Shown here piece after piece: positions 3,001-42,290 of a DNA stretch of 64,000 nt (position 1 is its first letter; each line of letters begins with the position of its first letter). The DNA comes from a virus. Location: the IMG/VR virus record IMGVR_UViG_3300045988_180522; one strand, given 5' to 3'. The position numbers and the translations under genes are program-made. The notes under the pieces were generated by a model, which made no database searches, was not told the origin of the DNA, and saw only the letters and a list, made by a program, of their open reading frames with translations.

Positions 3001-3484
3001 TATAAAATTCACCGATAATAAGGGGGAATTCCTTAATACTGTACCCCTCAATACCAGGGATAAGATTACAGGAGATGATATGGGTATGGTGAAGGAGATA
3101 ATCAGGGATAAAAATAAGGTCAGGTATATATTCATGGACTTCATATCCAAGGAAAATAGTTCAGGTGATATAGCCTACTACAAACTGTCTGGTGATGGTA
3201 CATCCTATGACCGTATACAGCCACTGGGAGCAGATGGTATGTTCCCTGAGTACTCCTATGGAATAAATGGGGAAGTAATGTCTTCAACTGTTTCTGAAAT
3301 AGCCGACCTCCTGGACCTGAACAATTCGGAATATCAGGAAGATATGGATGACAGGAACTATAATCCATTATCCCAGCCGGAGGAAACCTATGAGAAAGTG
3401 TTACAGACAGAGAATAACAGATCTGAAATCATGAGATATGAACCAGTTGAGGTAATTACTTCAGATAATAAAAAGTTGTGTTAA
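5..3484 (+). CDS. Giant virion RNA-polymerase-like protein, C-terminal 1159 aa (5' end lies outside window)
   Basis: The open frame runs from the window edge. GSDFDVDKM at nt 923-949 (DFDVD at 929-943) resembles the NADFDGDQM metal-binding Asp-triad motif of multisubunit RNAP beta', as carried by the giant RNAP-like proteins of crAss-like phages. I recognised no other motif by eye. Confidence 0.5.
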   Translation: MEENQIDVVQFDSAVKVGIQGAIDIPQGLEEDNVYDLLMKATGISEGEENTDVIHTIDYNDYGEQQENPEHFLDAQGLVGVQIRRLISADMSPEANIKVGDRTIPFTEWMNEYNALNVENVLQSYMATSEIFSDKAILSRILTEEARGGANYSNELVKSLKLNSNGEFRIPLYDESMSNKVQPLLNSIIKNRITRQKIKGGACVQVSNYGLTDSLNIVFEGEGKDRHIKYIECYMPWYSRTLVDGMMKEGSHVLDISKIPDSMRKIIGYRIPTEDKYSMLPLYIKGFLPQQSGGAIMLPSDITTITGSDFDVDKMYLMIPAFSVREKLDRKAVKRDLKERYKSMKDYNNQMDIVLDEIVNGKIAFSEDSFEMQVYDHIMDNYDIYHTKYVDAVKYNDNLSPKENGTDARNNRIIELMWGILTNPETAFKMLNPQGFDKIKEAARVAVLLKTGISREALRKELGNDLVSGLKNLSVRELDNMVEKYKIPYDPLSPLTQIEFHKNNMTGLGMVGIYANHNTHHAISQFTDVSLNPVNGAFPLLGHTLTSLHSQKALDGTYISRNVSGFLAASVDNAKDPVLEDLNQNTFTSDASMLLSRLGYSAFQVSLIMNQPIVREMADEYIRASRTGEGRMDVVNRISNDWIKSADIKNPSKLNISDITEEELIYNIMQSVLPADKRSASYVRKQAEFSKLFSKIMNTAEALGMLVRASRSDTQSGSAGPYIADTEIKLRNITLLREKIDSGKFPLDNADFLKDIPVLDEDSLRRDILNSKVPILQAFYTLGIFSTGNILSRYMPHHQDNFRQVVNSVESMTKTGRLNKKTLKTLYSDLFTYIMSKTEFFNEKYRKDFIMNFPNRFSNIVSSDPEIGNLGFIKALKTDKPFENSDLSVLGISGVGRLNTTMKENFSRDWANLLYMNNPSANRLALDLFRYGYFRGGFGFSPSSYMHLAPVVLIENIPGYIEAERGILGSEDDYSAFVTQFVRNHLSNKLLVPQTLEGNIKFTDNKGEFLNTVPLNTRDKITGDDMGMVKEIIRDKNKVRYIFMDFISKENSSGDIAYYKLSGDGTSYDRIQPLGADGMFPEYSYGINGEVMSSTVSEIADLLDLNNSEYQEDMDDRNYNPLSQPEETYEKVLQTENNRSEIMRYEPVEVITSDNKKLC

Positions 3485-3485
3485 T

Positions 3486-6400
3486 ATGGCTTTAAGTTGT
3501 GCAATAATCCCGACTATCAAGGATAGTACAGGGAAAGAAAGAGAAAGTACATTATTTAAGGATCTGTTGAAGTATACAGGCTATAACAGGCCTGTTACGA
3601 AGGATATATACAGCCGGGTAAAAAATCCGGCTTTCACAGAAGATACAAAATCTGTACTCAGTTTTGATGATCTGGGGGAACCTACCATATCCTCACTGTA
3701 TGAGAAAGCAGGATTGGATAAGCTTCTGGATAAAGGAGCCGTAATGAAGGAAATGAAAAGGGGCCTGGAGGCTGTGGATTCAGAAGGAAGGGAGAGAGAA
3801 TTTGAAAGAAGGGAATATGATTCACTGATAAGAAGGGTAAATAAATTTAACAGGGAAAATCCTTTCAGAAGGGATTATGTGGCCGATGTTATGCCTGTAG
3901 AAGGAGGAACTCTGAAAATTACTGTAGAACCCAGAACAGAGCAGAATAAAGACAGGGAAGCAATTCTTGGGTATGATGAAGCCCTTAATAACAGACTGAG
4001 GGATATTATGGCGGAAGCAGGGGTTACATATGGGACCCTTACAGAACTTGAAGAGAGAAGAGGATTAACAGGTATTACTGATTTCAGTGTTGCAAGAGAT
4101 GCTGCCACAGGAATAGCAGAATTGATAAGAATTGCCAGAGGAGAAAAGGGACAGGCCGCATTACCTGAGGAATTTGCACACTTTGCACTGGCTGCATTAG
4201 GAAACAATCCACTGGCTGTGAGACTTATAAACCTGTCTTCTGATCCTGATATACAGAAAAGTGTATTCGGAGACCAGTTTGATAATTACAGGACAGTCTA
4301 TAAAAATGACAGTAGTATGATGGCTAAGGAGGCAGCCGGGAAATTACTGGCAAAACATCTCCTTAAGGGAGAAAAAACTGAAGGCCCGTATAAATCTCTT
4401 ATAGACCGTGTTATAAGTGCTGTAAAGAATTTATTCAGTAAGATCACTTCTTCAAAGATAGAACAGGCCATCATTGAAGCTGACAGGGAAGCAGGAGCTT
4501 TGGCAGGGAAAATCCTTACAGGAGAAATGAATAAGGAGATGAAACTGGAGAATATATCAGAAAGCAGTCAGTTCTACTCTCTGTCCGAAAAGGTGGATAA
4601 GGAGATTCCTGTAATCCAGAGAATTATAAACAGTGAGATTAAAAGACTTGCTATATATAAGAGGAGAAATCCCAATGACAAGCTTACGAGGGACCAGCTG
4701 TTACTTATAGATAACCTTGAAAGGTCAAGGGATGCCCATATGGAAAAGAAAGGTATTTTCCTGTTTATGAAGAATGCTTTAAACTACATGAAAGAAGCTG
4801 ATAAGGCCCTTAATGACCTGAACAGGGACAGTACTCTTACTACGAAGGATAAAGCATCAGGACTGAGAGATCTGAGGGAAACTATCAGTTCCTATAACAC
4901 GCTGATACAATATATACAGGATGATATCTCTCAGGAAGAGATAGGAGGAGAAGAGGCGGAGTATACCAGTGAGATGAAAGCTTATATAAATGAGCTGTCA
5001 GGGATTTCCGGTAAGGTATTCTCTAAATACAGAAAAATGGCTATAGCCTTGTTTACTGAAACTATGAGACCCGTTATAGGTGATAAGATAGTAGTCCCTA
5101 TAGGAAAGTTCAGGGATAGGGAGTACACTCTTGAAGAGCTGATAGCTTCTTCTGACTCAGATATATCAGTATTCAGCAGATGGCTTGACAGTATGGCAGA
5201 TAGCTCTGACATTATACATCAGGGAATAGACCGTATAGTAAAGAGACAGAGGGACAAAGCCAGAAAGAAGACTATTGAGTACCAGAAGGAGCTTGTCAGG
5301 GAGGGACTTATACTGGAACAATCCGGAACTAAGGGATTTGATTTCATGTTCAAGAAGGATAAGAATGGTAATCTCACAGGAAAGTATATTACAGAGGCAG
5401 ATCAGGATAAGTATTCAGAGGCTAAAAAGAAAATGTATTCCAGCCTTCATGAGAAGTATAAGGAGACCCGGTTCGGAATAAATAAAAAAGCTTACTGGGA
5501 TGAAGTGAATGCCTGGTATGACCAGAATACTGACATAGTAGGGGATACAAGAGTTCCTAAATTATCCATATATGGTGATCCGGACTTTAAGAAAATGACT
5601 GCTCCGCAGAGAAGATTTTATGATAAGGTAATGGAGATAAAAGCAGATCTTGACAGCATGCTTCCTGAAGGAGTGACCAGTATAGATAATGCTGTTCAGA
5701 TACGTAAGGATCTTGTGGAAAGGATACAAAATGCTTCAGGGGTAAAAGGAGGGGTCCGGGAGGTGGTAAAAAGTATCAAGGATTCTTTTGTCTCCCGTGT
5801 TGATGACACTGGCTTCTCCAGGACCCTTATTGATTCAGGAGGAAACGAGATACAGGAATTACCTATATATTATGTCAGTAAACTTGAAGATCCTTCACAG
5901 ATATCTACAGATGTGGTATCCACACTGTCTGCATATGCTTCTATGGCTCTGGATTATAATTATATGGGAGAGATACTGGACGAGATAGAAATAGGAAGGG
6001 ATGTACTGTATGAAAGGGAAATACAGCAGACAAAAGGAGGTAATCCTGTAATGGAATCATTCAGATCTGCCGGAAGGGAAGTGGTAAATAAACTGACAAA
6101 AAGGGGCCGGGGGGTGACTAATTTCACAGGAAGGCTGGACGACTATTTCCAGATGCAGGTATATGGAAAATATATGAATGATGAGGGGGACGTACTGGGA
6201 GTAAGCCTTGCTAAGCTGGCCAACAATATAAACAGGTATACATCTGCAAATAATCTCGGACTTAACCTGCTTGCAGGTATATCCAATGTTACCACAGGAT
6301 CTGTGATGATGAATATAGAATCCTTTACAGGTGAGTTCTTTGGAGCTAAGGATACAGCTACGGCAGACAGAAAATATATGAAGCTCCTGCCTGAACACCT

Positions 6401-7481
6401 GGCTGGTATAGGTAACAGGGTAAAGACAGACAAGCTGTCCCTGTGGGATGAGTACTTTGATGTAATGCAGGACTTTGATGAGAAGGTATATGACACAGGA
6501 TTCAACAGGAGAAACTGGTTTACAAAGCTGTTGGGATCGAATGCTGTATTTTTTATAAACACAGCAGGAGAACACTGGATGCAGAACAGAACATCGATGG
6601 CTCTGGCTAATAAGATAAAGGTAAAGGATGAAAGAGGTAATACTATACCATTATTCGATGCTTATGAAGTAGTCACTGAGAAGAAGGATGGAAAAACCGT
6701 AAAGGCATTCCTGAGGCTGAAGAAAGGGATTACAAAGGAAGACGGGACAAAATGGACTGAGGAAGATGAATTCAATTTCAAACAGAAGGCAGCTGCTATA
6801 AACCAGGGAATGCATGGTATTTATAATAAGGCTGACAGGTCTGCCATACAGAAACTGGCAGTAGGAAGACTGGCTATGCTGTACAGGAAATGGATCAGAC
6901 CTAACTATATGAAAAGATTTAAGGCGGCACGGTATAATATGGACCTGGGCCAGTGGACACAGGGGTATTACAATACTGCATTCGGGTTTATATATACTCT
7001 GATGAAGGATCTCAGAAGAATGCAGTTTCATCTGGCAGCACATTACCAGGAGCTTACAAAAGAGGAGAAATATAATCTGAGAAGGGCTGCTATAGAGGTA
7101 GGGCACTTTATAGGACTGGTAGCCTTCCTGGGTCTTATGGACTGGGAAGATGATAAGGAAAGACCCTGGCATATGCAGATGCTTGAATACCAGTCAAGGA
7201 GGTTATATACAGAACTGGGTGCCCAGATTCCCGGATTACAGATGATTGAAGAAGCTGGTAAAATTCTGAAACAGCCTGCCGCAGGTATAAATACTATTCA
7301 GAATATTATCAACACATTCAAGATAGTGATGCCGGGATCACTGGAAGAGATACAAACAGGAAGATATAAGGGATATACGAGAGCTGAGAAGTATTTACTT
7401 GAACTTATTCCTATGAGAAGGACTGTTATGAATGCTCTGAATCCTGATGAGACACTGGCTTTCTTTAAGTCTTCGTGGTAG
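3486..7481 (+). CDS. Large virion-associated protein (1331 aa), function unknown (possible RNAP-associated or cargo protein)
   Basis: A 4-kb ORF starts 1 nt after the preceding stop and shares codon usage with its neighbours. No catalytic motif was recognised. Confidence 0.55.
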   Translation: MALSCAIIPTIKDSTGKERESTLFKDLLKYTGYNRPVTKDIYSRVKNPAFTEDTKSVLSFDDLGEPTISSLYEKAGLDKLLDKGAVMKEMKRGLEAVDSEGREREFERREYDSLIRRVNKFNRENPFRRDYVADVMPVEGGTLKITVEPRTEQNKDREAILGYDEALNNRLRDIMAEAGVTYGTLTELEERRGLTGITDFSVARDAATGIAELIRIARGEKGQAALPEEFAHFALAALGNNPLAVRLINLSSDPDIQKSVFGDQFDNYRTVYKNDSSMMAKEAAGKLLAKHLLKGEKTEGPYKSLIDRVISAVKNLFSKITSSKIEQAIIEADREAGALAGKILTGEMNKEMKLENISESSQFYSLSEKVDKEIPVIQRIINSEIKRLAIYKRRNPNDKLTRDQLLLIDNLERSRDAHMEKKGIFLFMKNALNYMKEADKALNDLNRDSTLTTKDKASGLRDLRETISSYNTLIQYIQDDISQEEIGGEEAEYTSEMKAYINELSGISGKVFSKYRKMAIALFTETMRPVIGDKIVVPIGKFRDREYTLEELIASSDSDISVFSRWLDSMADSSDIIHQGIDRIVKRQRDKARKKTIEYQKELVREGLILEQSGTKGFDFMFKKDKNGNLTGKYITEADQDKYSEAKKKMYSSLHEKYKETRFGINKKAYWDEVNAWYDQNTDIVGDTRVPKLSIYGDPDFKKMTAPQRRFYDKVMEIKADLDSMLPEGVTSIDNAVQIRKDLVERIQNASGVKGGVREVVKSIKDSFVSRVDDTGFSRTLIDSGGNEIQELPIYYVSKLEDPSQISTDVVSTLSAYASMALDYNYMGEILDEIEIGRDVLYEREIQQTKGGNPVMESFRSAGREVVNKLTKRGRGVTNFTGRLDDYFQMQVYGKYMNDEGDVLGVSLAKLANNINRYTSANNLGLNLLAGISNVTTGSVMMNIESFTGEFFGAKDTATADRKYMKLLPEHLAGIGNRVKTDKLSLWDEYFDVMQDFDEKVYDTGFNRRNWFTKLLGSNAVFFINTAGEHWMQNRTSMALANKIKVKDERGNTIPLFDAYEVVTEKKDGKTVKAFLRLKKGITKEDGTKWTEEDEFNFKQKAAAINQGMHGIYNKADRSAIQKLAVGRLAMLYRKWIRPNYMKRFKAARYNMDLGQWTQGYYNTAFGFIYTLMKDLRRMQFHLAAHYQELTKEEKYNLRRAAIEVGHFIGLVAFLGLMDWEDDKERPWHMQMLEYQSRRLYTELGAQIPGLQMIEEAGKILKQPAAGINTIQNIINTFKIVMPGSLEEIQTGRYKGYTRAEKYLLELIPMRRTVMNALNPDETLAFFKSSW

Positions 7482-18062: not shown

Positions 18063-19162
18063 ATTTTGTTATCCCAAAGGCTTTTTATCCTCTGGTTCTA
18101 TAAGTACTGGTAACCTCCTTATAGTTCGGCATATATTTTCACCCTCTTTAAGAGGGGCTGAGAACTCGTGGGCTGTTATATTTATTCAAGCCTATGCTCT
18201 ACAATACTTATAACCCTATTCGCAATGTTATAAGTTATCTCGGTGTTGAATAAGTTACGCTTTCTTGAAAGAAAAATAGTAGCATCTTTATACAAGAAAT
18301 CATATATACATTTCTTTACCTTATCAGAAGCATTTATAATTACTTTCCAATAATCGGTAGTTTTTCCTTGAATATGATATATTCTATATGAGAAATTTTT
18401 AAACCAACCCATTATCTGCTTCATAAAATGTTCTGAATTAAACACAAATTCAACAATACTACATCCCACATGGCCGTCTCCATCAAAGAAGCCTCTTATA
18501 AAATGTCTCCACAATTCCTCAGGTATAGAATCTTCAGGAATATAAAAACTTTTGTCTAAAGTTTTTAGTGGTCTGATATTATACTTAGCTCCTAATGTAT
18601 CGAACATATGTTCAGAAGTCCATTGTAATGTGTAACAAGGTTTTTTCTTTCTGTTATGAGTGTAATTTTTAACTAGTAATGAAGAATCAGGACATATATT
18701 ACTATGTAATGCTTCTATAGCTTCCTTGTCATCTATAGTATTATTAAATGCTATCCTTTTCGTATAGTGTAAATTCCTCTTTTCTAATCTACAACACCCA
18801 TCTGCTACTAAAAATCCAAGTAAGTAGGCTTTCAGTTCGGAATCTATATTATCAAAGAAATAGTCGTTAATTCTAAGTCCTCTTCTATCAAACTTAATAT
18901 TATAGTACTTAAAACAATCACTTACTCTTTGGGAAGAAATACCAAACCGACTTCCTATTTCTCTCTGATTTTTACCTTCTCTCATCATTTGACAGGCTAT
19001 TTCTATGTCAAATCTCTCTAAGCACTCTTTTTTAGTCATTTTATTTATCTATGGCAGTTATTAACTATGCAATAGTATAAATAAAAATCACCATTACCAT
19101 ATTTTTCACCGATTTTTCTCAGTTTTTTACTATATATTACTATATAGGGAGACATGCAATCT
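18057..19162 (-). mobile_element. Putative group I intron 1 in polA (carries LAGLIDADG HEG)
   Basis: This 1.1-kb insertion lies between polymerase motif A and motif B. Exon 1 has a stop and exon 2 sits in a different arrangement, so it is not an in-frame intein. A canonical U/G boundary choice (after GAU of ...EGSGD, before CAC of HSLTG) yields EGSGDHSLTGRMVF, matching Pol I EGKDIHRATAAEVF. The flanking non-ORF segments are 123 nt and 125 nt. Confidence 0.4.
18182..19039 (-). CDS. LAGLIDADG homing endonuclease (double motif) with N-terminal HTH, inside PolA intervening sequence 1
   Basis: Two LAGLIDADG-type motifs are present, YLLGFLVADGCC and FIRGFFDGDGHV. The N-terminal REIGSRFGISSQRVSDCF looks like a helix-turn-helix. 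Confidence 0.75.
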   Translation of the reverse strand: MTKKECLERFDIEIACQMMREGKNQREIGSRFGISSQRVSDCFKYYNIKFDRRGLRINDYFFDNIDSELKAYLLGFLVADGCCRLEKRNLHYTKRIAFNNTIDDKEAIEALHSNICPDSSLLVKNYTHNRKKKPCYTLQWTSEHMFDTLGAKYNIRPLKTLDKSFYIPEDSIPEELWRHFIRGFFDGDGHVGCSIVEFVFNSEHFMKQIMGWFKNFSYRIYHIQGKTTDYWKVIINASDKVKKCIYDFLYKDATIFLSRKRNLFNTEITYNIANRVISIVEHRLE

Positions 19163-20653
19163 ATCTCCACTTCCTTCCAGGAACTCACTGATCATAGCCT
19201 CATCCCTTGAAGCATCAGCCATAAGAACAGACTCTTCCCCTTTAACATCCTGTGATATCCACAGCCATCCCTCCCTTGGAATGAAGCATGATCTGGTTCT
19301 TTCATTCTTAGGAAGATTCAAAAGGTTCGGGTCTGTGGAACTGAATCTGGTGGTATCTGTTCCAAGCTGATGATAATTAGTATAGACCCTCCCGGTCCGG
19401 GGGTGGATATTTTCAAGGAATTTAGGCCCGTAAGTACTGACTACTTTCTCCAGTTTCTTGTATTTACAGTAGAGATCTACAATTTTATGGATATACCTCT
19501 GCGGCTTTATTTTCTTGGCATCACAGGTCTTTTTAAATCCTGTGGGACTATCCTTGTCTTCTACCATAACATCACATCCCAGCTCCTCCAGCAGAGGGAT
19601 TACCTGTCCTGAACTGGACCAGTTGATATCACATACATATCTTTCGGATTCATGAAACATATCGTACTGAGGATCCTCATAGATGTACGGATATTGCGAC
19701 ATTCTCTCATAGGCTATTTTCCTGTATTCCAGATTCCCGTCCTTAACTACCTTGTCCAGATCCGGCCTCCTCTTAAGTCTTTTCCTTTTTACAGGAACAG
19801 TCTTTCCTTTTACTTTCTTTGTCTTGTTGGAATCCTGGACATTGTTTGTAACCCATTCTTTCTGTTCCTCTTTGGACATGGAATAAGGATCGAAATAAAG
19901 GATTTTCCCCGGAGACGGATGTTCCAGTGAATATTCTATTACAGCCTTATTAAGAGCTTCTACAGACTCCTTAAGATCCCTCATATCATCTTCCGCCTTC
20001 TCCATCCATTTTTCCCGGCTTACAATCACTCCGCACCATTCCATATAAGACAGAGGGGCAATAGTCATTCCTTCTATAGCAGCAGCAGTATACAAATCCT
20101 GTCTTCTAAGCTCCTCTTCCTGCTTATCAGCTATCATAAGAAGATATTTCACATCATCACATGCATACACTATTACCTCAGGAGTAAGGCCTCTGGAAGC
20201 TATCTCCGTACGTACGGACTTATCCATACTGACTCCTGCATATCTGTGGGCCAGTCCCTGTAAACTTGCTGAAGGATAAGAAGGGTACCCTAGATATATC
20301 AGCTGTTCATTCAGGAACAGGTCATACATATTCATAATACATATTCTGTGATTATGCAGGTATTTGGCATCAAACTTACCATTAACTACTATAAACTGTA
20401 TGTCCTCAGATTCCAGCAACTCCTTATATAGTTGTATATCAATAGTATAAGTGTCAACAAGGATTTGTATATCAAAGTTTCCAAACTGTATACACCTGAT
20501 ATTCCCTGAATGACAGTCCAGTGAAGTAGTCTCAGTATCGAATCCTATTCTTTTCATACTGCGGAGGATATCCAGGGATTTCTCCACAGACATCCTCCCG
20601 TATTTATCAGAGGTTCCGAACAGGTCAGTATTATTACTTACTACATACCTCAT
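19130..20653 (-). CDS. polA: DNA polymerase A exon 1 ORF: 3'-5' exonuclease domain plus polymerase palm through motif A (507 aa ORF; splice donor predicted at 19163)
   Basis: GFDTETTSLD matches the Exo I motif. TTRFSSTDPNLLNLP aligns with TGRLSSSDPNLQNIP, and DVKGEESVLMADASRDEAMISEFLEGSGD aligns with [28 protein letters not shown] (motif A). The ORF terminates 3 residues after the DIH-equivalent. Confidence 0.8.
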   Translation of the reverse strand: MRYVVSNNTDLFGTSDKYGRMSVEKSLDILRSMKRIGFDTETTSLDCHSGNIRCIQFGNFDIQILVDTYTIDIQLYKELLESEDIQFIVVNGKFDAKYLHNHRICIMNMYDLFLNEQLIYLGYPSYPSASLQGLAHRYAGVSMDKSVRTEIASRGLTPEVIVYACDDVKYLLMIADKQEEELRRQDLYTAAAIEGMTIAPLSYMEWCGVIVSREKWMEKAEDDMRDLKESVEALNKAVIEYSLEHPSPGKILYFDPYSMSKEEQKEWVTNNVQDSNKTKKVKGKTVPVKRKRLKRRPDLDKVVKDGNLEYRKIAYERMSQYPYIYEDPQYDMFHESERYVCDINWSSSGQVIPLLEELGCDVMVEDKDSPTGFKKTCDAKKIKPQRYIHKIVDLYCKYKKLEKVVSTYGPKFLENIHPRTGRVYTNYHQLGTDTTRFSSTDPNLLNLPKNERTRSCFIPREGWLWISQDVKGEESVLMADASRDEAMISEFLEGSGDRLHVSLYSNI

Positions 20654-21251
20654 TTTTTTTTATTTTATGCCATACTATATACTTATCAAAATCTATCTTC
20701 CACTTGTGCTTGTCGAAGAATTCACTTCCGAGGATTCCTGTAACATTAAGGCCCTCCCTGTTGCTGAACTCTCTCAGTCCTTTCAGGTCTGAGACCAGAA
20801 AGTCCTCATTGAATTCCATATTCCTGATATTAAATCTGACCTGCATACCATAGGAATCCATAATAGCTCCGTTCCCCACCTGTATCTTATCTCCTTCGGC
20901 TATTGTCTTCCCTTTCAGCTTATCCTTTATAGTATACAGGAATTGAATATCAAGGCAGTTCTGGTGAGCTCCGGAATCCAGAAGGAACCTGCATTTCTTA
21001 CCATACAGGTGAACAATGATCATCGGAGTCTTTGTCCTTTCGAAATAATCCTCAAAAGAGAAAAACTCCCATTCTTTTGTATTCTCATTGTTCCTGTTCA
21101 GATCCCTTGAGATTCTCAGGGTAATAAGATATACCGGCCACAATGCCAGTAATAAAAATGCCAGACATACCATCCCCATATTACCTCCTTCCGGTGGAGC
21201 CGAATCCTCCTCTGGACTCATTTCCCAGATGTTGTACTTCCACAAACTCAA
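20634..21251 (-). CDS. Membrane-anchored retropepsin-like aspartic protease (205 aa)
   Basis: Has an N-terminal TM helix ([19 protein letters not shown]) followed by [13 protein letters not shown], which carries the D-S/T-G-A aspartyl protease signature. Confidence 0.5.
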
Positions 21252-22633: not shown

Positions 22634-23124
22634 GTCTTCATTTTGTTTTTAATTTCTTCAATACACTTCTTCATGCTGTGTACCGTCGTTACTTCAAAAA
22701 ACCTCACCTCCAGGCCCTGATGGTCTGATTTGTTCAGGTAATCTATAAACAGTTTTCTCTTTACAGGGTATACATCATTCCTGAATCCTTTTACCTCTAT
22801 AATATCCAGAACATTACCATGCCTGTATACAAAATCAGGGGTATATGTAAGGTCACGGAGTTTCCTGATATCAGGCTGAAAGACAGCTGCCTGTCCTCTT
22901 CTGCTGTATGTACTCCATACCTGTACATTATCAGGGTAGTCCCCTTTCATGAGTATTATCTTTTCAGGCTCATACTCCAGTCTTATTCCTTCTCTCAGGG
23001 CATACCTGTACATATTCAGTTCAGCCTTCGACTTAAACTGTATACCATCGAAGAATCCGGGGGTGGCATTTTTAATCTTCCTGTTCTTATCAGAATGGGA
23101 GATCGTCTGTTTCTTCTTCATCAT
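22630..23124 (-). CDS. DUF1064-type PD-(D/E)xK nuclease (164 aa)
   Basis: GIQFKSKAELNMYRYAL, YTPDFVY, DIIEVKG and KRKLFIDYL match the conserved DUF1064 blocks (F-D-S-K-x-E-A-R-R-Y, Y-x-A-D-F, V-E-D-V-K-G). Confidence 0.55.
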   Translation of the reverse strand: MMKKKQTISHSDKNRKIKNATPGFFDGIQFKSKAELNMYRYALREGIRLEYEPEKIILMKGDYPDNVQVWSTYSRRGQAAVFQPDIRKLRDLTYTPDFVYRHGNVLDIIEVKGFRNDVYPVKRKLFIDYLNKSDHQGLEVRFFEVTTVHSMKKCIEEIKNKMKT

Positions 23125-23803
23125 ATTCAGGTAATAACCATTTGAATTCAGTCCCCATATTCTCCTTCATGAACCTGTTTATCCTGGCAAACGGATCATC
23201 TGTCATTCTGGTATTACTACGGGCAAAATAAGCAGGATGTTCACATTTCAGTATACATGCCGCATTCTGCACTGCCGGAATGAAGGAGGCTGCCTGAGCC
23301 CCGAAGAACAGCCATATTACATCTGTTCTGTCGGAAGAAAACATTCTGATAAAGGTATCTGTAAATTCCCTCCAGGCAGCCTGATGGCTACCCGGGGAAT
23401 TTACCTTTACAGTAAGGGCTGAATTTATCATCAGTATTCCCTGAGACACCCATGACTCAAGAGTGGGATCGAATCTGGCTTCATCAGAAGGCCTGTAAGA
23501 AGAGATCTCAGGATGCAGGATACATTCCTTCAGTATCTTTAAAGAAGGACTTAAATCTTCGGATTTGGTACCTTCTTTATTGCCGAACAATATTCCCGTA
23601 GCTACTCCTTTTTGAGGGTAGGGATCCTGTCCCACTATAACAAGCCAGGTCCTGGAGGGGTCTGTAAGATGAAAGGCACGGAATACCTTATCTATTTCCG
23701 GACACATATTATCTGTATCCTTATCTATAGATGTGAGGGTATTCATGAGCACCTGTTCATTCATATAGACTCCCCATTTACCTAATAATTCATTTTTGAT
23801 CAT
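23090..23803 (-). CDS. ung: Uracil-DNA glycosylase, family 1 (UNG-like, 237 aa)
   Basis: VIVGQDPYPQKGVATGILF aligns with UNG V-I-L-GQDPYH-G-P-N-Q-A-H-G-L-C-F, INSALTVKVNSPGSH with NTVLTVRAGQANSH, and EHPAYFARS with HPSPLS. Motif A reads GQDPYP (His to Pro). Confidence 0.7.
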   Translation of the reverse strand: MIKNELLGKWGVYMNEQVLMNTLTSIDKDTDNMCPEIDKVFRAFHLTDPSRTWLVIVGQDPYPQKGVATGILFGNKEGTKSEDLSPSLKILKECILHPEISSYRPSDEARFDPTLESWVSQGILMINSALTVKVNSPGSHQAAWREFTDTFIRMFSSDRTDVIWLFFGAQAASFIPAVQNAACILKCEHPAYFARSNTRMTDDPFARINRFMKENMGTEFKWLLPEYDEEETDDLPF

Positions 23804-24365
23804 ACAATTGATTGATTATAACATTATAATTCTTACTGAGATACGCAGTTACAAACTGATCTGCATTCTCCAGAGCCTTCATCTTTACTGAAGGGGTCAC
23901 AACAGTATACTGTTCCTTATCGACAGCCTTTACAGAAAGAGTAGTATAGACGGAATGGATAGTGTATTCTAACGATACAGCTGTATTTATCAGTCTTGTC
24001 ATATCTGCTTTTGATAATACAGGAGCATCATAATTTATATAAATCTCTTTTTTATCAATAAAGACAGAGAGGATGACCTCCTTGTCATATATAGCTGTCC
24101 CTGCTATACACAGCATATTGGATCCTTTATACTGTAGTATGTATGGACTATTCCTACTACTACTTATAGTGTGTATAGCCTCCTTCAGAGATTTTGCCAC
24201 CATTATACGATCTATACATGGAATGTAGTACTTACCTTCATTGTTACCGACCTGTATCAGGTAATCATGCATATCGTTATTATTCGCATGATATACACGT
24301 ATTAGTGGAGAGGTGTTACAGTAAGCTCCATCCAGTATATTGCTTAATGTATACATTTCCATCAT
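23790..24365 (-). CDS. Hypothetical protein (191 aa), last gene of the Ubl-conjugation operon
   Basis: Has a 4-nt ATGA overlap with the E1-like gene. No motif recognised. Confidence 0.5.
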   Translation of the reverse strand: MMEMYTLSNILDGAYCNTSPLIRVYHANNNDMHDYLIQVGNNEGKYYIPCIDRIMVAKSLKEAIHTISSSRNSPYILQYKGSNMLCIAGTAIYDKEVILSVFIDKKEIYINYDAPVLSKADMTRLINTAVSLEYTIHSVYTTLSVKAVDKEQYTVVTPSVKMKALENADQFVTAYLSKNYNVIINQLYDQK

Positions 24366-25057
24366 TCGATAAATTTAGTGGTCATCAAAGGACCGTGATA
24401 CTCCATAAAGAAGGGGGCATATCTTTCCGACTGCATGTATACCTGACACAGCTTGTTGACAAATACATTGGCTATCATTCCTCCTATCTGCATAGCCATA
24501 AATGCAGTCTGTTTATAGGAGCAGATCTGTTCCTCAGCCTCTGCATCACTGAAAAGATACTGCTCTTCATATCTTTCCATATTCTCCTTCTCACTGCTTT
24601 CCATACATATAATCTGATACATTTCGGCACTTAGTCTGCCATCTATAAACACAGACTTACTTTTGCTATCAACATTACGTTTCCAGGCTTCATAAACTTC
24701 CCTTCTTGATTCCATATTATCAAGGCATGATATAACATGTCCTGAGAATACTTTGTTCCTGGTTACCCTCTCCCTGTAGCATCCTGTCCATGGTATAACC
24801 CTGAATGCCTCCAATACTCTCTTCATAGATACAGCCTTACTTTGTCCTATAAGACTATCGAAATACATCTGTCCGGCCATATTCTCAGGAGAAACTACAT
24901 CGGGGTCTATAAGATTCATACTCTTTACACCGAGCTTTCCTATAGCAAAAGAGGTCCAGCTTCCTATACCTCCGAGTCCTACAATATTCGCATGTTGGTA
25001 TTTTAACATTTCGAACCATACAGCCCCGGAGAATCTTTGTGTACAATTTTCATTCAT
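24362..25057 (-). CDS. E1-like ubiquitin-activating enzyme (ThiF/MoeB family, 231 aa)
   Basis: IVGLGGIGSWTSFAIGKLGVKSMNLIDPDVVSPENMAGQ aligns with the ThiF/MoeB Rossmann segment G-x-G-G-x-G...D-x-D-V-V-S-L-S-N-L-Q-R-Q. Further matches are GQSKAVSMKRVL to GQPKVESARDAL and VISCLDNMESRREVY to VLDCTDNVAVRNQLN. Confidence 0.8.
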   Translation of the reverse strand: MNENCTQRFSGAVWFEMLKYQHANIVGLGGIGSWTSFAIGKLGVKSMNLIDPDVVSPENMAGQMYFDSLIGQSKAVSMKRVLEAFRVIPWTGCYRERVTRNKVFSGHVISCLDNMESRREVYEAWKRNVDSKSKSVFIDGRLSAEMYQIICMESSEKENMERYEEQYLFSDAEAEEQICSYKQTAFMAMQIGGMIANVFVNKLCQVYMQSERYAPFFMEYHGPLMTTKFIE

Positions 25058-26070
25058 AATGTCTTCAATTTACTTTCAACTAATTCAAGGATAGGATCCA
25101 GACTGTCATCCTCATAATCACATATATACCTGATTACCTTTTCCAGGATCTCCTTCTTCTTATACTTAGGATCTATATCCTCCCACATCCTGTAGTACGG
25201 CGGATTACTGTCGGCCTCATCGATAAGTTCGGATACTATACTGTCTACATTATCCAGACGCAGGAATCCGGATAATACCTTACATACTCCTGTATCAATG
25301 TCATTGTTCTGGCAGGAAGCTCTTTGTATAATACCCTGTGATATATCGGTGCTTTTCATATAAGCTGAGGGCCGGTATGGTATAATACTCTTATAGTCCC
25401 GATGTTCAGAAAGCCAGTCTCTGTTTGCTGTCATACATGGTGCCTTACGTCTTGATATTTCCCTTGCCGTAGATAAGGGAGATTCAGGGAATTTAAGGAA
25501 GGATTTCGGATATTTTACATCCAGTGAGTAAGTCTCTATCTGAGTAGAGGTAAACTTCTTCTCACCTGTATATATGGTATTTCCGTCAGGATCTGTGTAT
25601 GATCCTTTCAAAGTACCATTATAAACTACTTTCCTTGTTATTCTGGCCTCGTAGGTATGACTTGAATCTACCACCAGTGACAGGAACCAGTTCTTTTCCT
25701 TCCCTTCACTTGCCAGGGTCTGCATATCTTCCCCTGAGAAGAAAGCCCCCATGCGGTGATGTGAGTGTATGAGCCCTATACTGCTGCCCTCAAGTTCATT
25801 ATCAGATATGAAAGCTGCTATGTACCTGTTAACATCATTACTGTCATATTGAGTATGTACGGATGTTCCTATATCAAGTATGAGAATATCCTTTACTACA
25901 GCGGAAATCTTTCCTTTTCTGTCTTTAATACTGTAAAACAAAACTCCTGACCACTCAGTGTCAGGAAGTTCGAAGATAGCCCAATCTATCTTATTCTGAA
26001 TGTCCCTGGGAATTTCTATATTTCCTATATTTCTCAGGGATTGCTCGTTCTGATGTATATTTTTCTGCAT
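25054..26070 (-). CDS. JAB/JAMM (MPN+) metalloprotease, deubiquitinase-like (338 aa)
   Basis: IHSHHRMGAFFSGEDM fits H-x-H-x7-S-x2-D exactly. A conserved Glu lies upstream (ELPDTEW). Confidence 0.8.
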   Translation of the reverse strand: MQKNIHQNEQSLRNIGNIEIPRDIQNKIDWAIFELPDTEWSGVLFYSIKDRKGKISAVVKDILILDIGTSVHTQYDSNDVNRYIAAFISDNELEGSSIGLIHSHHRMGAFFSGEDMQTLASEGKEKNWFLSLVVDSSHTYEARITRKVVYNGTLKGSYTDPDGNTIYTGEKKFTSTQIETYSLDVKYPKSFLKFPESPLSTAREISRRKAPCMTANRDWLSEHRDYKSIIPYRPSAYMKSTDISQGIIQRASCQNNDIDTGVCKVLSGFLRLDNVDSIVSELIDEADSNPPYYRMWEDIDPKYKKKEILEKVIRYICDYEDDSLDPILELVESKLKTL

Positions 26071-27112
26071 AAGCGGTTAATAAAGATTCAACAATATCGA
26101 CGAATACACTATACACCTTTGGTTGTATAAAGTATCGGAAATCGGGAATAATATCATCTTTCGGTTCTACACGGAGTCTTACAGGACTGCCTTTAAACAT
26201 GAACAGTATACGTTCAATATCCGGGTCAATGTCAGTTATTTCAGGTGCATTATACCTATATATATATCCGAAACTATCCTGAAATCCTCTATATAAGGGT
26301 ATATCCAAGTAACAGTCCTCAGCTAAATCTGATAATATAACTGCCAGTTCTTCCGGTGTATAACTGAGCTTTACCCTTCCGTCACATTCTGCAAGCTTTA
26401 TATTACCTGATACCAGAAAGGTTTTTACAAGATACTTTATATCCGGTATACTTACAGATACGTTACTTGTATCCGAATACTGTGTATATATAAGTCTGTC
26501 GGACTTTTCTATATTCAGATCTGCCATATACTGATAGGGGCCTCCGGATACAGACTCCACATGTATGTACTGATCCAGTAATACAGGAAGAGTCTCTGTA
26601 AATCCAGGTTCCCATATAGATTTCATAGTACTTATTACAGTACTCAGGGCTGTTTTCCCAAGACAACATGTCCTAAATGCCCCTGACAGGTCTAAGTTAC
26701 TGTGACAATGTGAATGGATATACCCTCTGCATGCCTCGATATATGAGTAGGTACCTCTGTTCATTCTTATGCCTTCTACGGACAGCATAAGGTTGTTAAA
26801 TGTAAGTTTGATATACAGATCCTTTATAGTATGCGTTTCTTCTACTTCATTCTGTATAATAACCTCCGGGCGGTATATAATAATTGTAAATGCTGGTGTG
26901 TTCAAACCTTCGCTATGTCTACTCAGTATCTCGTTTATGGCATCATCGAATGTGTCACATTTCTGTATAATATCTTCATACATAGAAAGTAATTTTATCC
27001 TTTCAGAACAGACATCCTCATCTACATACTCCTCCCCGAAATAATCATTAAAGGAGGAGAGGAGGCTATCGAATCTCCGATATACCTCCTCAATGGCCTC
27101 ATCTACTGTCAT
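25991..27112 (-). CDS. E2-like (UBC-fold) protein candidate (373 aa)
   Basis: HSNLDLSGAFRTCCLGKTALSTVISTMKSI aligns with the UBC active-site region HPNINSNGSICLDIL...TISKVLLSI. An HxN tripeptide, a Gly and the catalytic Cys are all at canonical spacing. Confidence 0.45.
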   Translation of the reverse strand: MTVDEAIEEVYRRFDSLLSSFNDYFGEEYVDEDVCSERIKLLSMYEDIIQKCDTFDDAINEILSRHSEGLNTPAFTIIIYRPEVIIQNEVEETHTIKDLYIKLTFNNLMLSVEGIRMNRGTYSYIEACRGYIHSHCHSNLDLSGAFRTCCLGKTALSTVISTMKSIWEPGFTETLPVLLDQYIHVESVSGGPYQYMADLNIEKSDRLIYTQYSDTSNVSVSIPDIKYLVKTFLVSGNIKLAECDGRVKLSYTPEELAVILSDLAEDCYLDIPLYRGFQDSFGYIYRYNAPEITDIDPDIERILFMFKGSPVRLRVEPKDDIIPDFRYFIQPKVYSVFVDIVESLLTAYAEKYTSERAIPEKYRKYRNSQGHSE

Positions 27113-27792
27113 CTCAGGTACTTAAGTTCTTCCTTCAATTCTGACAGAAGGTTTTCGGTTTCATTCTTCCTGACAGATCCCTCCCTGATACTATTAATGT
27201 CAGTATCACTCAGGATTCCCTTATTATACAGGCAATTCAGCAGGCTATCCAGTCTGGCTGCGGACCATACAGATTCTGTACCACAGGGTTCCGGCTTATT
27301 TTCTTCCTCTTTGTCCTTCTCCATAGTATCATACACTGCCTCCAGGACCTCCTCCTTCTTATCCTGTACCTTTTTCTTATTACCTGATGTACGTTCCATT
27401 TTTGTTATGAAGGCTGTAAGGTTATCACTTGATACCTGTGTGTAATTCCTTCCAAATTCTTTTTTCACATCCTCCTGTAAACCTCTTGAGACAATCATTT
27501 GGTTAATTTCTTTTCTGGATAATGTTCCGGAAGATACTTTCTTGTTCGGAGTCATTAGGATAATAGACAATTCACGTGTAGGATTCCCACGGAACATCAC
27601 AGTGTCAGGAAGAAGGCTCTGGTCATCCGTAAGCATAGTTCTTGATCTTCCTTCATGGAATTCCTTACCACTATAATTGATTCCGGCATTATCCAGCTCC
27701 CTTTTCAGTTCTCCAAGGGTTCCTGCTGTACTTTCAATCTGTTTTGCCCAGCTAACTGTCTCATCTGTAATTCTGATAATTCTACTTTCCAT
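27109..27792 (-). CDS. Candidate ubiquitin-like (beta-grasp) protein with C-terminal extension (227 aa)
   Basis: The N-terminal ~69 aa MESRIIRIT...TLGELKRELDNAGI...RTMLTDDQSLLPDTVMFRG follows the ubiquitin pattern (IFVKTLTGK...TIENVKAKIQDKEGI...[23 protein letters not shown]) and ends in RG before the extension. Confidence 0.3.
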   Translation of the reverse strand: MESRIIRITDETVSWAKQIESTAGTLGELKRELDNAGINYSGKEFHEGRSRTMLTDDQSLLPDTVMFRGNPTRELSIILMTPNKKVSSGTLSRKEINQMIVSRGLQEDVKKEFGRNYTQVSSDNLTAFITKMERTSGNKKKVQDKKEEVLEAVYDTMEKDKEEENKPEPCGTESVWSAARLDSLLNCLYNKGILSDTDINSIREGSVRKNETENLLSELKEELKYLR

Positions 27793-27817: not shown

Positions 27818-28849
27818 TTAAAATGGTATATCATCCGGGTCCTGGGGGAGTCCTATCATATCCCTGAGTACCCGGGTGGCCAGTTTCCTTCCATGATTTT
27901 TTGTAAGGTCACTGGGATCTTTTGATTTGTATAAAGACGGGATTTCTATCTGATGCAGGCTATATTCATCACACAGCTTCTCAGAGTACATCCTGCCGTA
28001 ATTGATTTCCTTATTGAAATCATTGTCGAACAGCACATGTATATTTTCGAACCTTTGTTTCAGTGAAGATATAACATGAGGCTTAGGGACATATCCTTCA
28101 CCTTGCAGACTTGTCGAGGGTATACCTGTGCAACACCATACACACATGGCATCCTTCCGTGAGGAAGTGATTACCAGATGGTTTCCTCTTTCAGGAAGCA
28201 GTGTCCACAGGTCCCATACAGACCTGTCATGCTTGCTTATCCATTTAAGATGGTCACTGAAAGGCTGGTAAATCTTAATGGTAGGATTTCCGTCCTTGAA
28301 TTCAACATATACATAGGCATATTTATCGGCAGGCATAGAAGTAGTCTTTCCTTCCCTGATAAAGAATATGGTGCTGATAGGATAGGTATTCGAGATATCC
28401 AGAAACCACTTATCCACTCCCTGCTTTTCCCAGAACTCATAGTCATAGGGCCTCCAGTCTCTGGTTTTCACCCTGACATCCGACCCCTGGTGTGACAGAG
28501 GGGATCCCTGTTTTCCGGAAACAGATCCTGACAATTTTTTTTTGTCAGGAACCCTCCTGATATCAGACAAATCCCTGCATAACCTCCTGAATGCCTCCTG
28601 TGCAGTACAGGCCCACATCAGGCTCAGGAGATCCAGTACCCTGCCTGAATCTCCTCTTGCCTGGTCTTTGAACCTGATATGCCCGTCCATACCCTGAAAG
28701 ATGCTCAGTGAGGGTTTCCTGTCAGGTCTGTACGGCGCATTTATTATACATGGAAGTTCCGTGATTCCCAGGTAATATGAGATTATCTGAAATTCACTTG
28801 CTATTCTGTATAGACTGTTAAGATCATCAGGACGGGCAGTCAGTATCAT
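27818..28849 (-). CDS. Primase-like protein with TOPRIM-like segment (343 aa)
   Basis: HLVITSSRKDAM...IHVLFDNDFNKE resembles a TOPRIM acidic pair (DxD). Its position is adjacent to helicase/ATPase genes. Confidence 0.35.
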   Translation of the reverse strand: MILTARPDDLNSLYRIASEFQIISYYLGITELPCIINAPYRPDRKPSLSIFQGMDGHIRFKDQARGDSGRVLDLLSLMWACTAQEAFRRLCRDLSDIRRVPDKKKLSGSVSGKQGSPLSHQGSDVRVKTRDWRPYDYEFWEKQGVDKWFLDISNTYPISTIFFIREGKTTSMPADKYAYVYVEFKDGNPTIKIYQPFSDHLKWISKHDRSVWDLWTLLPERGNHLVITSSRKDAMCVWCCTGIPSTSLQGEGYVPKPHVISSLKQRFENIHVLFDNDFNKEINYGRMYSEKLCDEYSLHQIEIPSLYKSKDPSDLTKNHGRKLATRVLRDMIGLPQDPDDIPF

Positions 28850-40793: not shown

Positions 40794-42290
40794 ATGAAGG
40801 AAAGAGTAAACACAAAAGATGCAAGAGAGAAGCTTCTTGAAGGAGTAAGTATATTATCTGAGGCAGTATCACTGACCCTTGGTCCGTCAGGGAATACTGT
40901 GGTCATTACTGATGGGGACGGATCTCCTCATGTTACCAAGGATGGGGCTACTGTAGCACAGGCAGTGAGTGACCCTGATCCTGAGGTTAACTGTGGTATT
41001 GAGCTGGTAAGGCAGGCAGCCGTAAAGACAGCCAAGGAGGCAGGGGATGGTACTACCACTTCTACTGTACTGGCCAATGCTTTTATACATAATCTGAAGG
41101 ATTATGATCCTGTAGAAGCTTGTAAGGCGCTTGACTTCGTCACTTCGATGGTATCTGAGCTTATTTCACAGAAATCTGTAAAGATTGTAAGGAATATGGA
41201 TATGGTGGAAGGAGTGGCTACCATATCTGCAAACAATGATGGTACTATAGGCAGATATATCCGTGAAGCTTATGAGAAGACAGGGATGGGGGTGAATATT
41301 ATGCTTCTTGAAGGATTTGATGACAAGACTGTGGTATCTACCACAAAGGGGATAAAATTTGATAAGGGATATGAGTCTATAAGGTTTGTCAATAATCAGG
41401 ATAAGGGGGCCTTCGAGATATCAGACTGTGATGTGGTATTATTTGAGAATCCCCTGTGTGTATCTCAGGATATATTACAGGAGTACAGGCTTGATAAAGC
41501 TGTTCCTGTGCTCATCATAGGTCCTTCATTCTCAAGTGAGGTAATCAATTTCGGTATTTCTGCAAGAAGGTCAGGATATTCCGTATGTATGGTTCAGGCA
41601 GAGGGATGGGGGGATTCCCAGAGGGAGCATATCAGGGATATAGCAGCCCTTATATGTCCTGTATACAGTGAAGATATCAGCTATTACGGAAGGGTTGATA
41701 AGGTAATTGTCGATTCTATGTCTACTACCATCATAGGAGGCAAAGGCCATCCATCTTCTTATATTGCCAGCCTCCGGGCCCGGGCCGGAAACAGTGATGT
41801 GGAGGACCATAAGAACAGTCTTCTGGAAAGGGCATCTATACTGGAGAATGGTACTTGTTCCATTACTGTGGGAGCTAAGACTGAAGCAGAGCTGAAAGAG
41901 AAAATGGACAGGTATGATGATGCTGTGAGAGCTGTAAAATCAGCTGTAGAGGAAGGAGTATTGCCTGGAGGAGGAATTGCCCTGAGCAGAATTTCCGATG
42001 AGATCATGGAAAAAACGGAGACAGCAGGGGCCAGGAGGGATGCATTATTATGCTTGCATTCTGTAAGGGACAAGCTGTGTGAGATGTGTGGCATATCATG
42101 GTCATATGATGTAAATCAGGATTTCTTCACAGGATATGATTTCAGGAGAGGGAAAGAGGTGAACTGTCTGGAGGAAGGTATTCTGGATCCTGCAAAGGTA
42201 GAGAGGGTAGCTGTAGAGAATGCTGCCTCCGTAGCCAAGACTATTTTATCGACTAAATGTATAATCAATACCAGGGAGGACAGGTTATGA
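40794..42290 (+). CDS. groL: GroEL-family chaperonin (Cpn60), 498 aa
   Basis: LTLGPSGNTVVI aligns with VTLGPKGRNVVL, VTKDGATVAQAV with ITKDGVSVAREI, and AGDGTTTSTVLA with AGDGTTTATVLA. C-terminal LPGGGIALSR and GILDPAKVERVAVENAASVAKTILSTKC also match GroEL. It lacks the GGM tail. Confidence 0.85.
   Translation: MKERVNTKDAREKLLEGVSILSEAVSLTLGPSGNTVVITDGDGSPHVTKDGATVAQAVSDPDPEVNCGIELVRQAAVKTAKEAGDGTTTSTVLANAFIHNLKDYDPVEACKALDFVTSMVSELISQKSVKIVRNMDMVEGVATISANNDGTIGRYIREAYEKTGMGVNIMLLEGFDDKTVVSTTKGIKFDKGYESIRFVNNQDKGAFEISDCDVVLFENPLCVSQDILQEYRLDKAVPVLIIGPSFSSEVINFGISARRSGYSVCMVQAEGWGDSQREHIRDIAALICPVYSEDISYYGRVDKVIVDSMSTTIIGGKGHPSSYIASLRARAGNSDVEDHKNSLLERASILENGTCSITVGAKTEAELKEKMDRYDDAVRAVKSAVEEGVLPGGGIALSRISDEIMEKTETAGARRDALLCLHSVRDKLCEMCGISWSYDVNQDFFTGYDFRRGKEVNCLEEGILDPAKVERVAVENAASVAKTILSTKCIINTREDRL

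Follow-up and report, generated by a model that had tools for sequence, protein, structure and literature searches.

Gene content of the locus

The 64,000-nt stretch IMGVR_UViG_3300045988_180522, which belongs to a crAss-like gut phage and is referred to in its full length as the window, carries on its minus strand a compact module of four genes that most likely encode a ubiquitin-like protein (Ubl), an E2-like protein, a JAB metallopeptidase and an E1. This is the gene order of bilA-B-C-D in bacteria, namely Ubl, E2, JAB and E1 (10.1101/2023.09.26.559546). The same identities had been assigned to the four parts in an original prediction from the nucleotide sequence, and these assignments are most likely right. 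A fifth gene is coupled to that of the E1. The coordinates of all five genes are those of the list of open reading frames (ORFs):

27109..27792, minus strand: Ubl precursor (pro-Ubl) gene, 227 aa
25991..27112, minus strand: E2-like gene, 373 aa
25054..26070, minus strand: JAB/JAMM metallopeptidase gene, 338 aa
24362..25057, minus strand: minimal E1 gene, 231 aa
23790..24365, minus strand: fifth gene, 191 aa, coupled to the E1 gene through an ATGA overlap

The five ORFs are translationally coupled, with 4-nt ATGA start/stop overlaps at three of their junctions, an overlap of 80 nt between the E2-like and JAB genes, and no promoter-like or terminator-like excess seen between the five; the coordinates and junctions agree with the coupled minus-strand genes and overlaps of 4 to 80 nt described originally. 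The module genes are evidently real and not chance ORFs, because homologues in the same order, down to 20–35% identity, are present in 24 other loci. The window is 97% identical to the genome of Dulem virus 41 (PP511520; 92.9 kb, circular, from lemur faeces), in which one of the five products is annotated as a 'ThiF family protein' and the other four are hypothetical.

A long E2-like/JAB overlap (25991-26070 in the window) recurs at 35–83 nt in many distant lineages (loci L002, L003, L010, L011, L016, L018, L021 and L022); elsewhere the two genes overlap by just 7–14 nt or not at all. The long form may reflect coupling, a frameshift fusion or miscalled start sites.

The E1 and the JAB metallopeptidase

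The 231-aa protein is matched by the Pfam ThiF family (PF00899) over residues 16–228 with 73.5 bits, compared with a cut-off of 28.1 (E = 1.9e-20), and on this measure it clearly belongs to the ThiF-family adenylating enzymes. It is predicted to be an E1 of the minimal type (MoeB/ThiF/UBA5) with one adenylation domain, as had been proposed; no second adenylation domain, inserted Cys domain or ubiquitin-fold domain was seen in its 231 residues. A profile search against the Protein Data Bank (PDB) retrieved PaaA/MccB (5e-14), UBA5 (2e-13), ThiF and MoeB (both 4e-11), as well as Uba1 and TcdA and, lower down, Cap2 (~1e-7) and BubCD (2e-7). In a set of 13 homologues with 28–36% identity to the window protein, the invariant residues include R8, at the position of the N-terminal Arg finger, together with D51, D53, N59, Q63, K74, D113, R118 and the following elements:

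24959..24979, minus strand: nucleotide-binding loop GLGGIGS of the E1 (residues 27–33), of which G27, G29, G30, I31 and S33 are invariant
24518..24523, minus strand: Cys179-Ser180 of the E1, both invariant in the 13 homologues; Cys179 is the predicted thioester-forming Cys

In UBA5 the catalytic Cys sits inside the adenylation domain. We take Cys179 to occupy the position of the crossover-loop Cys of ThiF and UBA5, where a hand comparison with their sequences puts it.

The second enzyme that can be recognized directly is the JAB protein. Its residues 102–115 read HSHHRMGAFFSGED, that is HxHx7Sx2D, which upholds the motif reported in the original prediction:

25726..25767, minus strand: JAMM zinc site H102-S-H104-x7-S112-x2-D115 (coordinates checked)
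25945-25956, minus strand: upstream catalytic Glu39 (EWSG), invariant

E39, H102, H104, S112 and D115 are invariant across 14 sequences with 17–29% identity to the window JAB, and the protein retains the complete E...HxHx7Sx2D site. The JAB domain spans approximately residues 20–150 and is followed by a variable C-terminal domain. The Pfam Prok-JAB model (PF14464) matches the window protein slightly under its cut-off of 25 (22.9 bits, E = 8.3e-5) and recognizes 13 of 14 diverse homologues, and a profile search gave weak matches to Pyrococcus JAMM1 and CSN5. Assignment to the PRTRC system was considered and rejected: TIGR03735 (PRTRC_A) reached just E = 0.11 over 17 residues of the JAB protein, and the PRTRC_ThiF match (1e-12) is far under its own cut-off.

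The ubiquitin-like precursor

The 227-aa protein appears to consist of a modifier domain and a removable extension, as follows:

27526..27792, minus strand: beta-grasp domain, residues 1–89, ending KKVSSG at the invariant Gly89, the predicted processing and activation site
27112..27525, minus strand: C-terminal tail of pro-Ubl, residues 90–227, predicted to be removed by JAB (alignment A3 and model)

A beta-grasp, ubiquitin-like fold had been expected for the N-terminus and is indeed predicted there: in the model, the domain extends to about residue 83 and is followed by a flexible tail up to Gly89. Its structural relatives are TINCR (8.7), FAT10 (7.9), ubiquitin fusions (7.8–7.0), MoaD (7.4) and BilA (8tyz_B, 6.8), each with approximately 70 residues aligned at ~2 A. 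Among 16 diverse homologues, complete invariance is confined to L61, P62 and G89, with S88 close to it. Searching with a domain profile found 140 proteins; in the 120 that were inspected, the domain nearly always ends in K-[VI]-K-[SA]-G, the stop codon never directly follows the Gly, and the tail after it comprises 1 residue (~19 proteins), 3, 5, ~60 or up to 93 residues, compared to 138 residues in the window protein. Tails differ widely in length and sequence between lineages. An invariant Gly capped by a variable extension is the pattern of ubiquitin-like precursors, and we therefore read the 227-aa product as a pro-Ubl.

The modifier had originally been thought to end at FRG (residues 67–69). 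That assignment does not hold, because FRG lies within a hairpin insertion that is wholly missing from the shorter homologues of 75–78 residues; judging from the alignment, pro-Ubl is most likely cut after Gly89 and not after FRG69. Within the tail, a helical domain covers residues 93–135. R93 is invariant there, as are N116/Y117/T118/Q119 of FGRNYTQ, in which the F113-G114-R115 positions vary (FGK, FKC); the remainder of the tail is predicted with low confidence. The 140-aa clade has a different helical tail (AKDVDV..L.DVK). The released tail pieces may have functions of their own. Matches of the 227-aa protein's tail to CARD (E = 0.022) and RNase_T are weak and were treated as chance.

The E2-like protein

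Neither the Ubl nor the E2-like protein was detected at the sequence level by Pfam, NCBIfam or PADLOC, run on the window proteins, or by phmmer and profile searches against PDB sequences. The E2 assignment of the 373-aa protein draws on its conservation, studied in 155 representatives of clusters at 50% identity or less, and on an AlphaFold2 model with a mean pLDDT of 79, and two elements stand out:

26708..26722, minus strand: YIHSH motif, residues 131–135, at the position of the classical E2 HPN (coordinates checked)
26663..26665, minus strand: Cys150, predicted E2 catalytic Cys, in a C-L-G context, present in 155 of 155 representatives

The model has an N-terminal helical region, a UBC-like core (approximately residues 70–200) and a C-terminal alpha/beta domain. 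Helices occupy residues 3–65, with one short strand at 30–34, and lead into an antiparallel three-stranded meander (73–119) and a short helix; then come the Y131-I-H-S-H135 loop, a short strand running to C150, helices 155–163 and 172–184, and a separate alpha/beta domain (220–350). Fold matches of the protein are to UBC, UEV and RWD domains. E89, Y131, S134, H135, C150, G152, E186, S187 and P192 are invariant in the 155 representatives and H133 is conserved in 99%. The resulting pattern, [aromatic]-x-H-x-[H/N]-[VI] and then C-L, is similar to the IYHPNI...ICL signature of classical E2s, and C150 falls just past the short strand that follows the loop of the H motif, where the model is confident. 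From this order of secondary structure elements, as opposed to a residue-level superposition, we infer that C150 is the equivalent of the E2 catalytic Cys. The HSN...G...CC string to which the original prediction drew attention is literally present, but neither HSN (136–138) nor the first Cys (C149) is conserved.

Conservation and distribution

The module lies between two further genes, given here as context:

27818..28849, minus strand: DNA primase gene, upstream neighbour (phrog_12622, 8e-41)
23090..23803, minus strand: uracil-DNA glycosylase (UDG) gene, usual downstream neighbour (annotated as UDG-F1-like in Dulem virus 41)

Genes for primase, Ubl, E2-like protein, JAB and E1 follow one another in the 24 further loci inspected from IMG/VR, Logan and GenBank, at 20–35% identity; a coupled gene and then UDG usually come after the E1, with UDG homologues downstream in many of the loci. 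In 23 of these loci all four module genes are present in this order and overlap or lie close together, the remaining locus (L009) being without a detected Ubl, and the primase lies upstream in every inspected locus that reaches that far. The 609-aa E2-like protein of L009 was examined as a possible Ubl-E2 fusion, and no Ubl signal was found in it. Genes for a DnaB-like helicase, an AAA ATPase, an SNF2-like ATPase, a polymerase, a dUTPase and an exonuclease surround the module. The close family of the E2-like protein sits on contigs of 92–98 kb.

The block can be followed into cultured phages. In Bacteroides phage crAss001 it corresponds to Gp80 (primase), Gp79, Gp78, Gp77 ('metalloprotease domain containing protein'), Gp76 ('thiamine biosynthesis protein'), Gp75 and Gp74 (UDG), and in Flavobacterium phage FpV4 to gp53-gp50; E2-like and E1 genes were also detected by tblastn in DAC15/17. 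crAss001 and the three uncultured-phage matches that were checked all belong to the Steigviridae/Asinivirinae (Kehishuvirus, Kolpuevirus, Lahndsivirus and Mahstovirus), and FpV4 is a Fipvunavirus. The tblastn searches, whose collection did not include p-crAssphage (Intestiviridae) under accession NC_024711, found the E2-like gene in 74 phage records and the E1 gene in 79, with p-crAssphage in neither list. Both sets match by organism, and the five records with the E1 only are Xanthomonas/Erwinia phages, four of them listed at ~227 kb.

The E2-like profile, when compared to 1.84 billion cluster representatives, retrieved 3157 clusters (50% identity) at E <= 1e-3, of which 2714 at E <= 1e-10. 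Bacterial and archaeal genomes were covered by a pattern-limited scan with one genome per species (185,579 species). A first pattern found nothing; a second, built from a different alignment, gave three contigs of metagenome-assembled genomes (MAGs), all phage-like in appearance and one of 94 kb. The full-length MAG contig L023 has the whole module and L024 ends within the JAB gene. Given the 3157 clusters of the E2-like family, the synteny of the 24 loci and the mere three MAG contigs among species genomes, the module is an ancient block of core genes in a phage lineage of very large size. The original prediction spoke of a lytic-looking phage with its own copy; with its conservation in Steigviridae, including crAss001, and in the Fipvunavirus FpV4, the module is not a defence system picked up by one lytic phage. 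A conserved block beside the primase argues against a recently acquired decoy, although it does not by itself show what the module does.

Some loci are interrupted. In L002 (7247-10944) the JAB gene is in two parts around an opposite-strand ORF of the LAGLIDADG type and the E1 gene is also in two pieces, and in a close relative (L006, 8059-9336) ~1.3 kb of extra DNA separates JAB from E1; the module appears to be targeted by homing-endonuclease or intron-like insertions. A separate observation concerns the four ~227-kb jumbo phages of Xanthomonas and Erwinia (PV764602, PV764601, OQ603359 and OQ603353), which carry a ThiF-like gene with 26–27% identity to crAss001 Gp76 and no detectable E2-like partner. 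Their gene could represent a different use of a phage E1-like enzyme.

Proposed cascade and alternatives

A capped beta-grasp protein with an invariant Gly, an intact JAB, a minimal E1 with its Cys, a UBC-like protein with its own Cys and strict co-inheritance together point to a conjugation cascade without an E3. On balance, the four genes probably form a self-contained, phage-borne Ubl-conjugation cascade that is expressed with the replication genes. By analogy with Bil and with general E1/E2 chemistry, JAB would cleave the 227-aa precursor after Gly89, so that a beta-grasp modifier of 89 residues is released with its C-terminal Gly exposed. The E1, probably as a homodimer, would then adenylate Gly89 and load it on Cys179, the conserved residues being consistent with a reaction that proceeds without a separate Cys domain. 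From there, the modifier would move to Cys150 of the E2-like protein, whose extra N- and C-terminal domains probably select the substrate, as no E3 is encoded. Finally, the modifier would be attached to lysine residues of its targets, one or several proteins of phage or host, and JAB may also undo the attachment. Given the module's fixed place beside the primase and UDG, our first guess for a target is a protein, of phage or host, that is associated with replication. This constant neighbourhood suggests a link to replication, although conserved gene order alone could account for it. The more general proposition, that a large lineage of global abundance, the Steigviridae-type crAss-like phages and relatives such as FpV4, carries its own complete Ubl cascade as a core function of the replication module and covalently tags host or phage proteins during infection, is plausible and is advanced more tentatively.

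Several observations weigh against a conjugation cascade, and the E2 call is its weakest link and needs confirmation. The H-x-H...C...E set of the E2-like protein fits a metal site or another active site equally well. The UBC fold, which had been suggested for the 373-aa protein, is favoured by the fold matches, but a Foldseek comparison of the full-length model to the PDB returned noise (TnsB, E = 0.0097, TM 0.13). The Pfam E2 families (UQ_con, Prok-E2_A-E) match none of 55 diverse E2-like members at E <= 0.1, and hhalign of the 155-sequence alignment against four canonical E2s gave a probability of 0.1%. The module structures are predictions from shallow alignments of 16–24 sequences. There are two further points: the modifier ends in Ser-Gly rather than Gly-Gly, and an invariant Gly62 stands in the E1 family where ThiF, MoeB, MccB and the E1 enzymes have the Arg of N-x-x-R-Q. 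Residues 51–63 (24869-24907, minus strand) accordingly read D-x-D-x5-N-x-x-G-Q, so the adenylation chemistry could be altered. The remaining residues of the adenylation site are kept: R8, the Gly loop, D51, K74 and D113 are all invariant. Lastly, no E3 is encoded.

Alternatively, the module could operate a sulfur carrier. The Ubl would then be a ThiS/MoaD/TtuB-like protein, trimmed by JAB as by QbsD or Mec+, and adenylated by the ThiF-like E1 on the way to a thiocarboxylate; the sulfur would pass to a nucleotide, DNA base, tRNA or cofactor, with the 373-aa protein as the enzyme that accepts or transfers it. We consider this unlikely. ThiS and MoaD end in Gly-Gly, in contrast to the Ser-Gly of the phage modifier, and long variable C-terminal caps are typical of conjugated modifiers. 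Fold matches of the 373-aa protein are to UBC, UEV and RWD domains and not to sulfurtransferases. Neither for the module nor for the complete genome with 97% identity does the annotation list a rhodanese, a cysteine desulfurase or a PP-loop sulfurtransferase, although with annotation this sparse the point is weak evidence.

A role in counter-defence, which the original prediction had named as one of two possibilities, in the form of a decoy or deconjugase, is very doubtful. JAB would strip Ubl or CD-NTase conjugates made by a host Bil-like system or by Cap2/Cap3 of the cyclic oligonucleotide-based antiphage signalling system (CBASS), and the phage Ubl would soak up host E1 and E2. The parts and their order are those of Bil, Bacteroides have Ubl/JAB/E1/E2 operons (class 6d of Iyer; PMC1779556), and the fast-changing fifth gene and variable Ubl tails resemble features of an arms race. 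However, a full cascade with an invariant Cys in both the E1 and the E2-like protein is unneeded for a decoy or deconjugase, sequence similarity to BilA and BilB is lacking and that to Cap2 is just generic. The module is moreover a core replication block, as opposed to an accessory island, in phages as distant as those of Bacteroides, Flavobacterium and environmental contigs, so that an intact cascade conserved across hosts fits the idea poorly.

A processing device without conjugation is similarly improbable: the beta-grasp domain would act as a cis chaperone or timer from which JAB releases the tail protein, and the E1 and the 373-aa protein would do something unrelated, the former perhaps adenylating a peptide or nucleotide as MccB and PaaA, its best solved relatives by profile, do; yet, even with a conserved motif of its own in the long tail of the window clade (R93 and N116-Q119 of FGRNYTQ) and with the Ubl-JAB pair that lambda-type tail assembly employs without E1 or E2 (PMC1779556), tail release cannot be the conserved function because many homologues have tails of just 1–5 residues; the four genes also travel together everywhere, and an E1 needs just such an invariant Gly where the domain ends.

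The fifth gene and other features of the window

The slot coupled to the E1 gene is always filled. The 191-aa protein that fills it in the window has just near-identical relatives, and the occupants elsewhere fall into at least five groups without similarity to one another by phmmer, jackhmmer and hhalign. The same three programs found nothing to support the 191-aa gene as a diverged homologue of the other slot genes, and Pfam, PHROG and NCBIfam gave no match to its product. PADLOC matched residues 27–113 weakly to its model of a type II methyltransferase (E = 2.2e-4, 18 bits), probably by chance. The co-transcription of this gene with the module, noted originally, holds as regards position, but the sequences in the slot are unrelated between clades. 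Because the slot is filled everywhere and the sequence is not conserved, membership of the 191-aa gene in the module is uncertain; its product may confer specificity or be a target, evolving fast in either role, or have nothing to do with the module.

Other regions of the window show features of their own. The DNA polymerase (window 19130-21251, minus strand; L001 2517-5928) is annotated in the related genome as several separate coding sequence (CDS) pieces ('polymerase/primase', three times), after which comes a 205-aa 'retropepsin-like protein'; the polymerase may be split or interrupted by introns or inteins. A 498-aa GroEL-like chaperonin (40794-42290, plus strand; phrog_5725, E = 1e-102) lies beside a RepL-like gene and is called 'GroEL protein' in Dulem virus 41. 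Three giant ORFs of 1159, 1331 and 1384 aa occupy 5-7481 and 54126-58280 on the plus strand. The third is the 'pyocin knob' CDS of the related genome, directly past the portal block, and the first two, compared by position and unaligned, probably match its hypothetical proteins of 2247 and 1331 aa. Genes of such size are typical for crAss-like phages.

Novelty and implications

In prokaryotes, Ubl conjugation is known to date as a defence of bacteria against phages (Bil, CBASS and probably Bub), and here it would be a core block on the side of the phage. Our literature search on crAss-like phages or Crassvirales with ThiF, JAB or ubiquitin-like proteins found no relevant paper, though the supplements of subscription papers may contain a mention. 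The main text of the crAss001 paper does not mention the module genes, and GenBank names two of them ('thiamine biosynthesis protein ThiF' and 'metalloprotease domain containing protein'), the others being hypothetical. In crAss-like phages, which rank with the most abundant human gut viruses, the function of the module has gone unnoticed until now.

If the proposal is true, this would be the first E1-E2-Ubl-deubiquitinase system encoded by a bacteriophage, with E2 and Ubl families that have no sequence relation to any described, and it might have served as a reservoir, on the viral side, while the ubiquitin-like systems of prokaryotes evolved. Confirmation would bring two new sequence families into the ubiquitin world, Ubl and E2-like (3157 clusters at 50% identity for the E2-like family), and would reveal the benefit of tagging proteins to a phage whose host cell lacks a proteasome. 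The prediction is directly testable, since the module is present in cultured phage-host pairs: crAss001 and B. intestinalis, DAC15/17 and B. thetaiotaomicron, and FpV4 and F. psychrophilum.

Comparison with known systems

A phage-encoded precedent is the tail assembly module of lambda and T1, where a Ubl-JAB pair (TAPI/TAPK) occurs without E1 or E2 (PMC1779556). As in the present case, a phage beta-grasp protein with a conserved Gly is followed by another domain and accompanied by a JAB peptidase (PMC1779556). That pair, however, belongs to a tail module and serves assembly, whereas the crAss-like module would be a full cascade within a replication module; it is not the TAPI/TAPK pair. The phage Ubl also differs from the ThiS/MoaD carriers in the end of its domain, which is [SA]-G and not Gly-Gly.

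With UBA5 and the minimal E1s of the MoeB/ThiF type, the phage enzyme shares a single adenylation domain, a Cys inside that domain and the retained Arg finger, Gly loop, Lys and Asp. It differs from them in having Gly for the Arg of N-x-x-R-Q and in being paired with an E2-like protein. CxxC pairs, which build the zinc site in MoeB and ThiF, were not seen in the phage E1 homologues. In the Bub systems (6E/DUF6527), both the E1 and the E2 lack a catalytic Cys and act through Tyr/Ser oxyesters, and the operons include a DUF6527 serine protease (PMC11601596). In the phage module, by contrast, C179 of the E1 and C150 of the E2-like protein are invariant, and Pfam gave no DUF6527 match in the window proteins; the module is not, to judge from these residues and matches, a Bub system.

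Type II CBASS uses related E1, E2 and JAB chemistry, and the PADLOC E1-E2 (Cap2) models match the Rossmann core of the phage E1 at 2e-9 and weaker, over residues 16–93 only. Applied to the five module proteins, PADLOC found no Cap2/Cap3-type E2 or JAB, no CD-NTase and no other defence-system model. In Cap2 an E2 is fused to an E1, and what the fusion conjugates is the CD-NTase itself, with no separate Ubl, whereas the phage E2-like protein and E1 are encoded by separate genes. The tie to Cap2/Cap3 that had been drawn from the shared parts is therefore not one of membership, there being no E2-E1 fusion and only weak Rossmann matches.

The closest parallel is to Bil (type I/II; the 6C/CEHH class of Iyer), with the same four parts in the same order, no encoded E3, and a Ubl with a conserved C-terminal Gly from which, in Bil, BilC removes the extra residues. 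Beyond this arrangement, which had been recognized originally and stands, the two diverge. BilD is an E1 of ~535 aa with IAD, AAD and CYS domains, whereas the phage E1 is a single 231-aa domain with its Cys in the crossover loop, and hhalign aligns the two over the Rossmann core only (E = 0.0044, probability 7.8%). BilB has its conserved His after the Cys (C138, H151), whereas in the phage protein His133 and His135 precede Cys150, as in classical E2s. By hhalign, the E2-like alignment (A6) and E. aridi BilB gave a probability of 0.3%, and the Ubl and E. aridi BilA one below 0.5%, so that the likeness to Bil does not extend to membership. Overhangs of BilA are 0–9 aa, those of the phage Ubl 1 to ~140 aa. 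Finally, Bil is a bacterial anti-phage system with CapH/CapP regulators, whereas the phage module is carried by a 93-kb circular phage genome, crAss001, FpV4 and IMG/VR contigs, and not by bacterial defence loci. Based on the different E1 architecture and E2 motif order, the absence of a detectable sequence relation to BilA and BilB, and the phage location, the module would work like Bil and yet not be a member of it, forming instead a core block of phage genomes.

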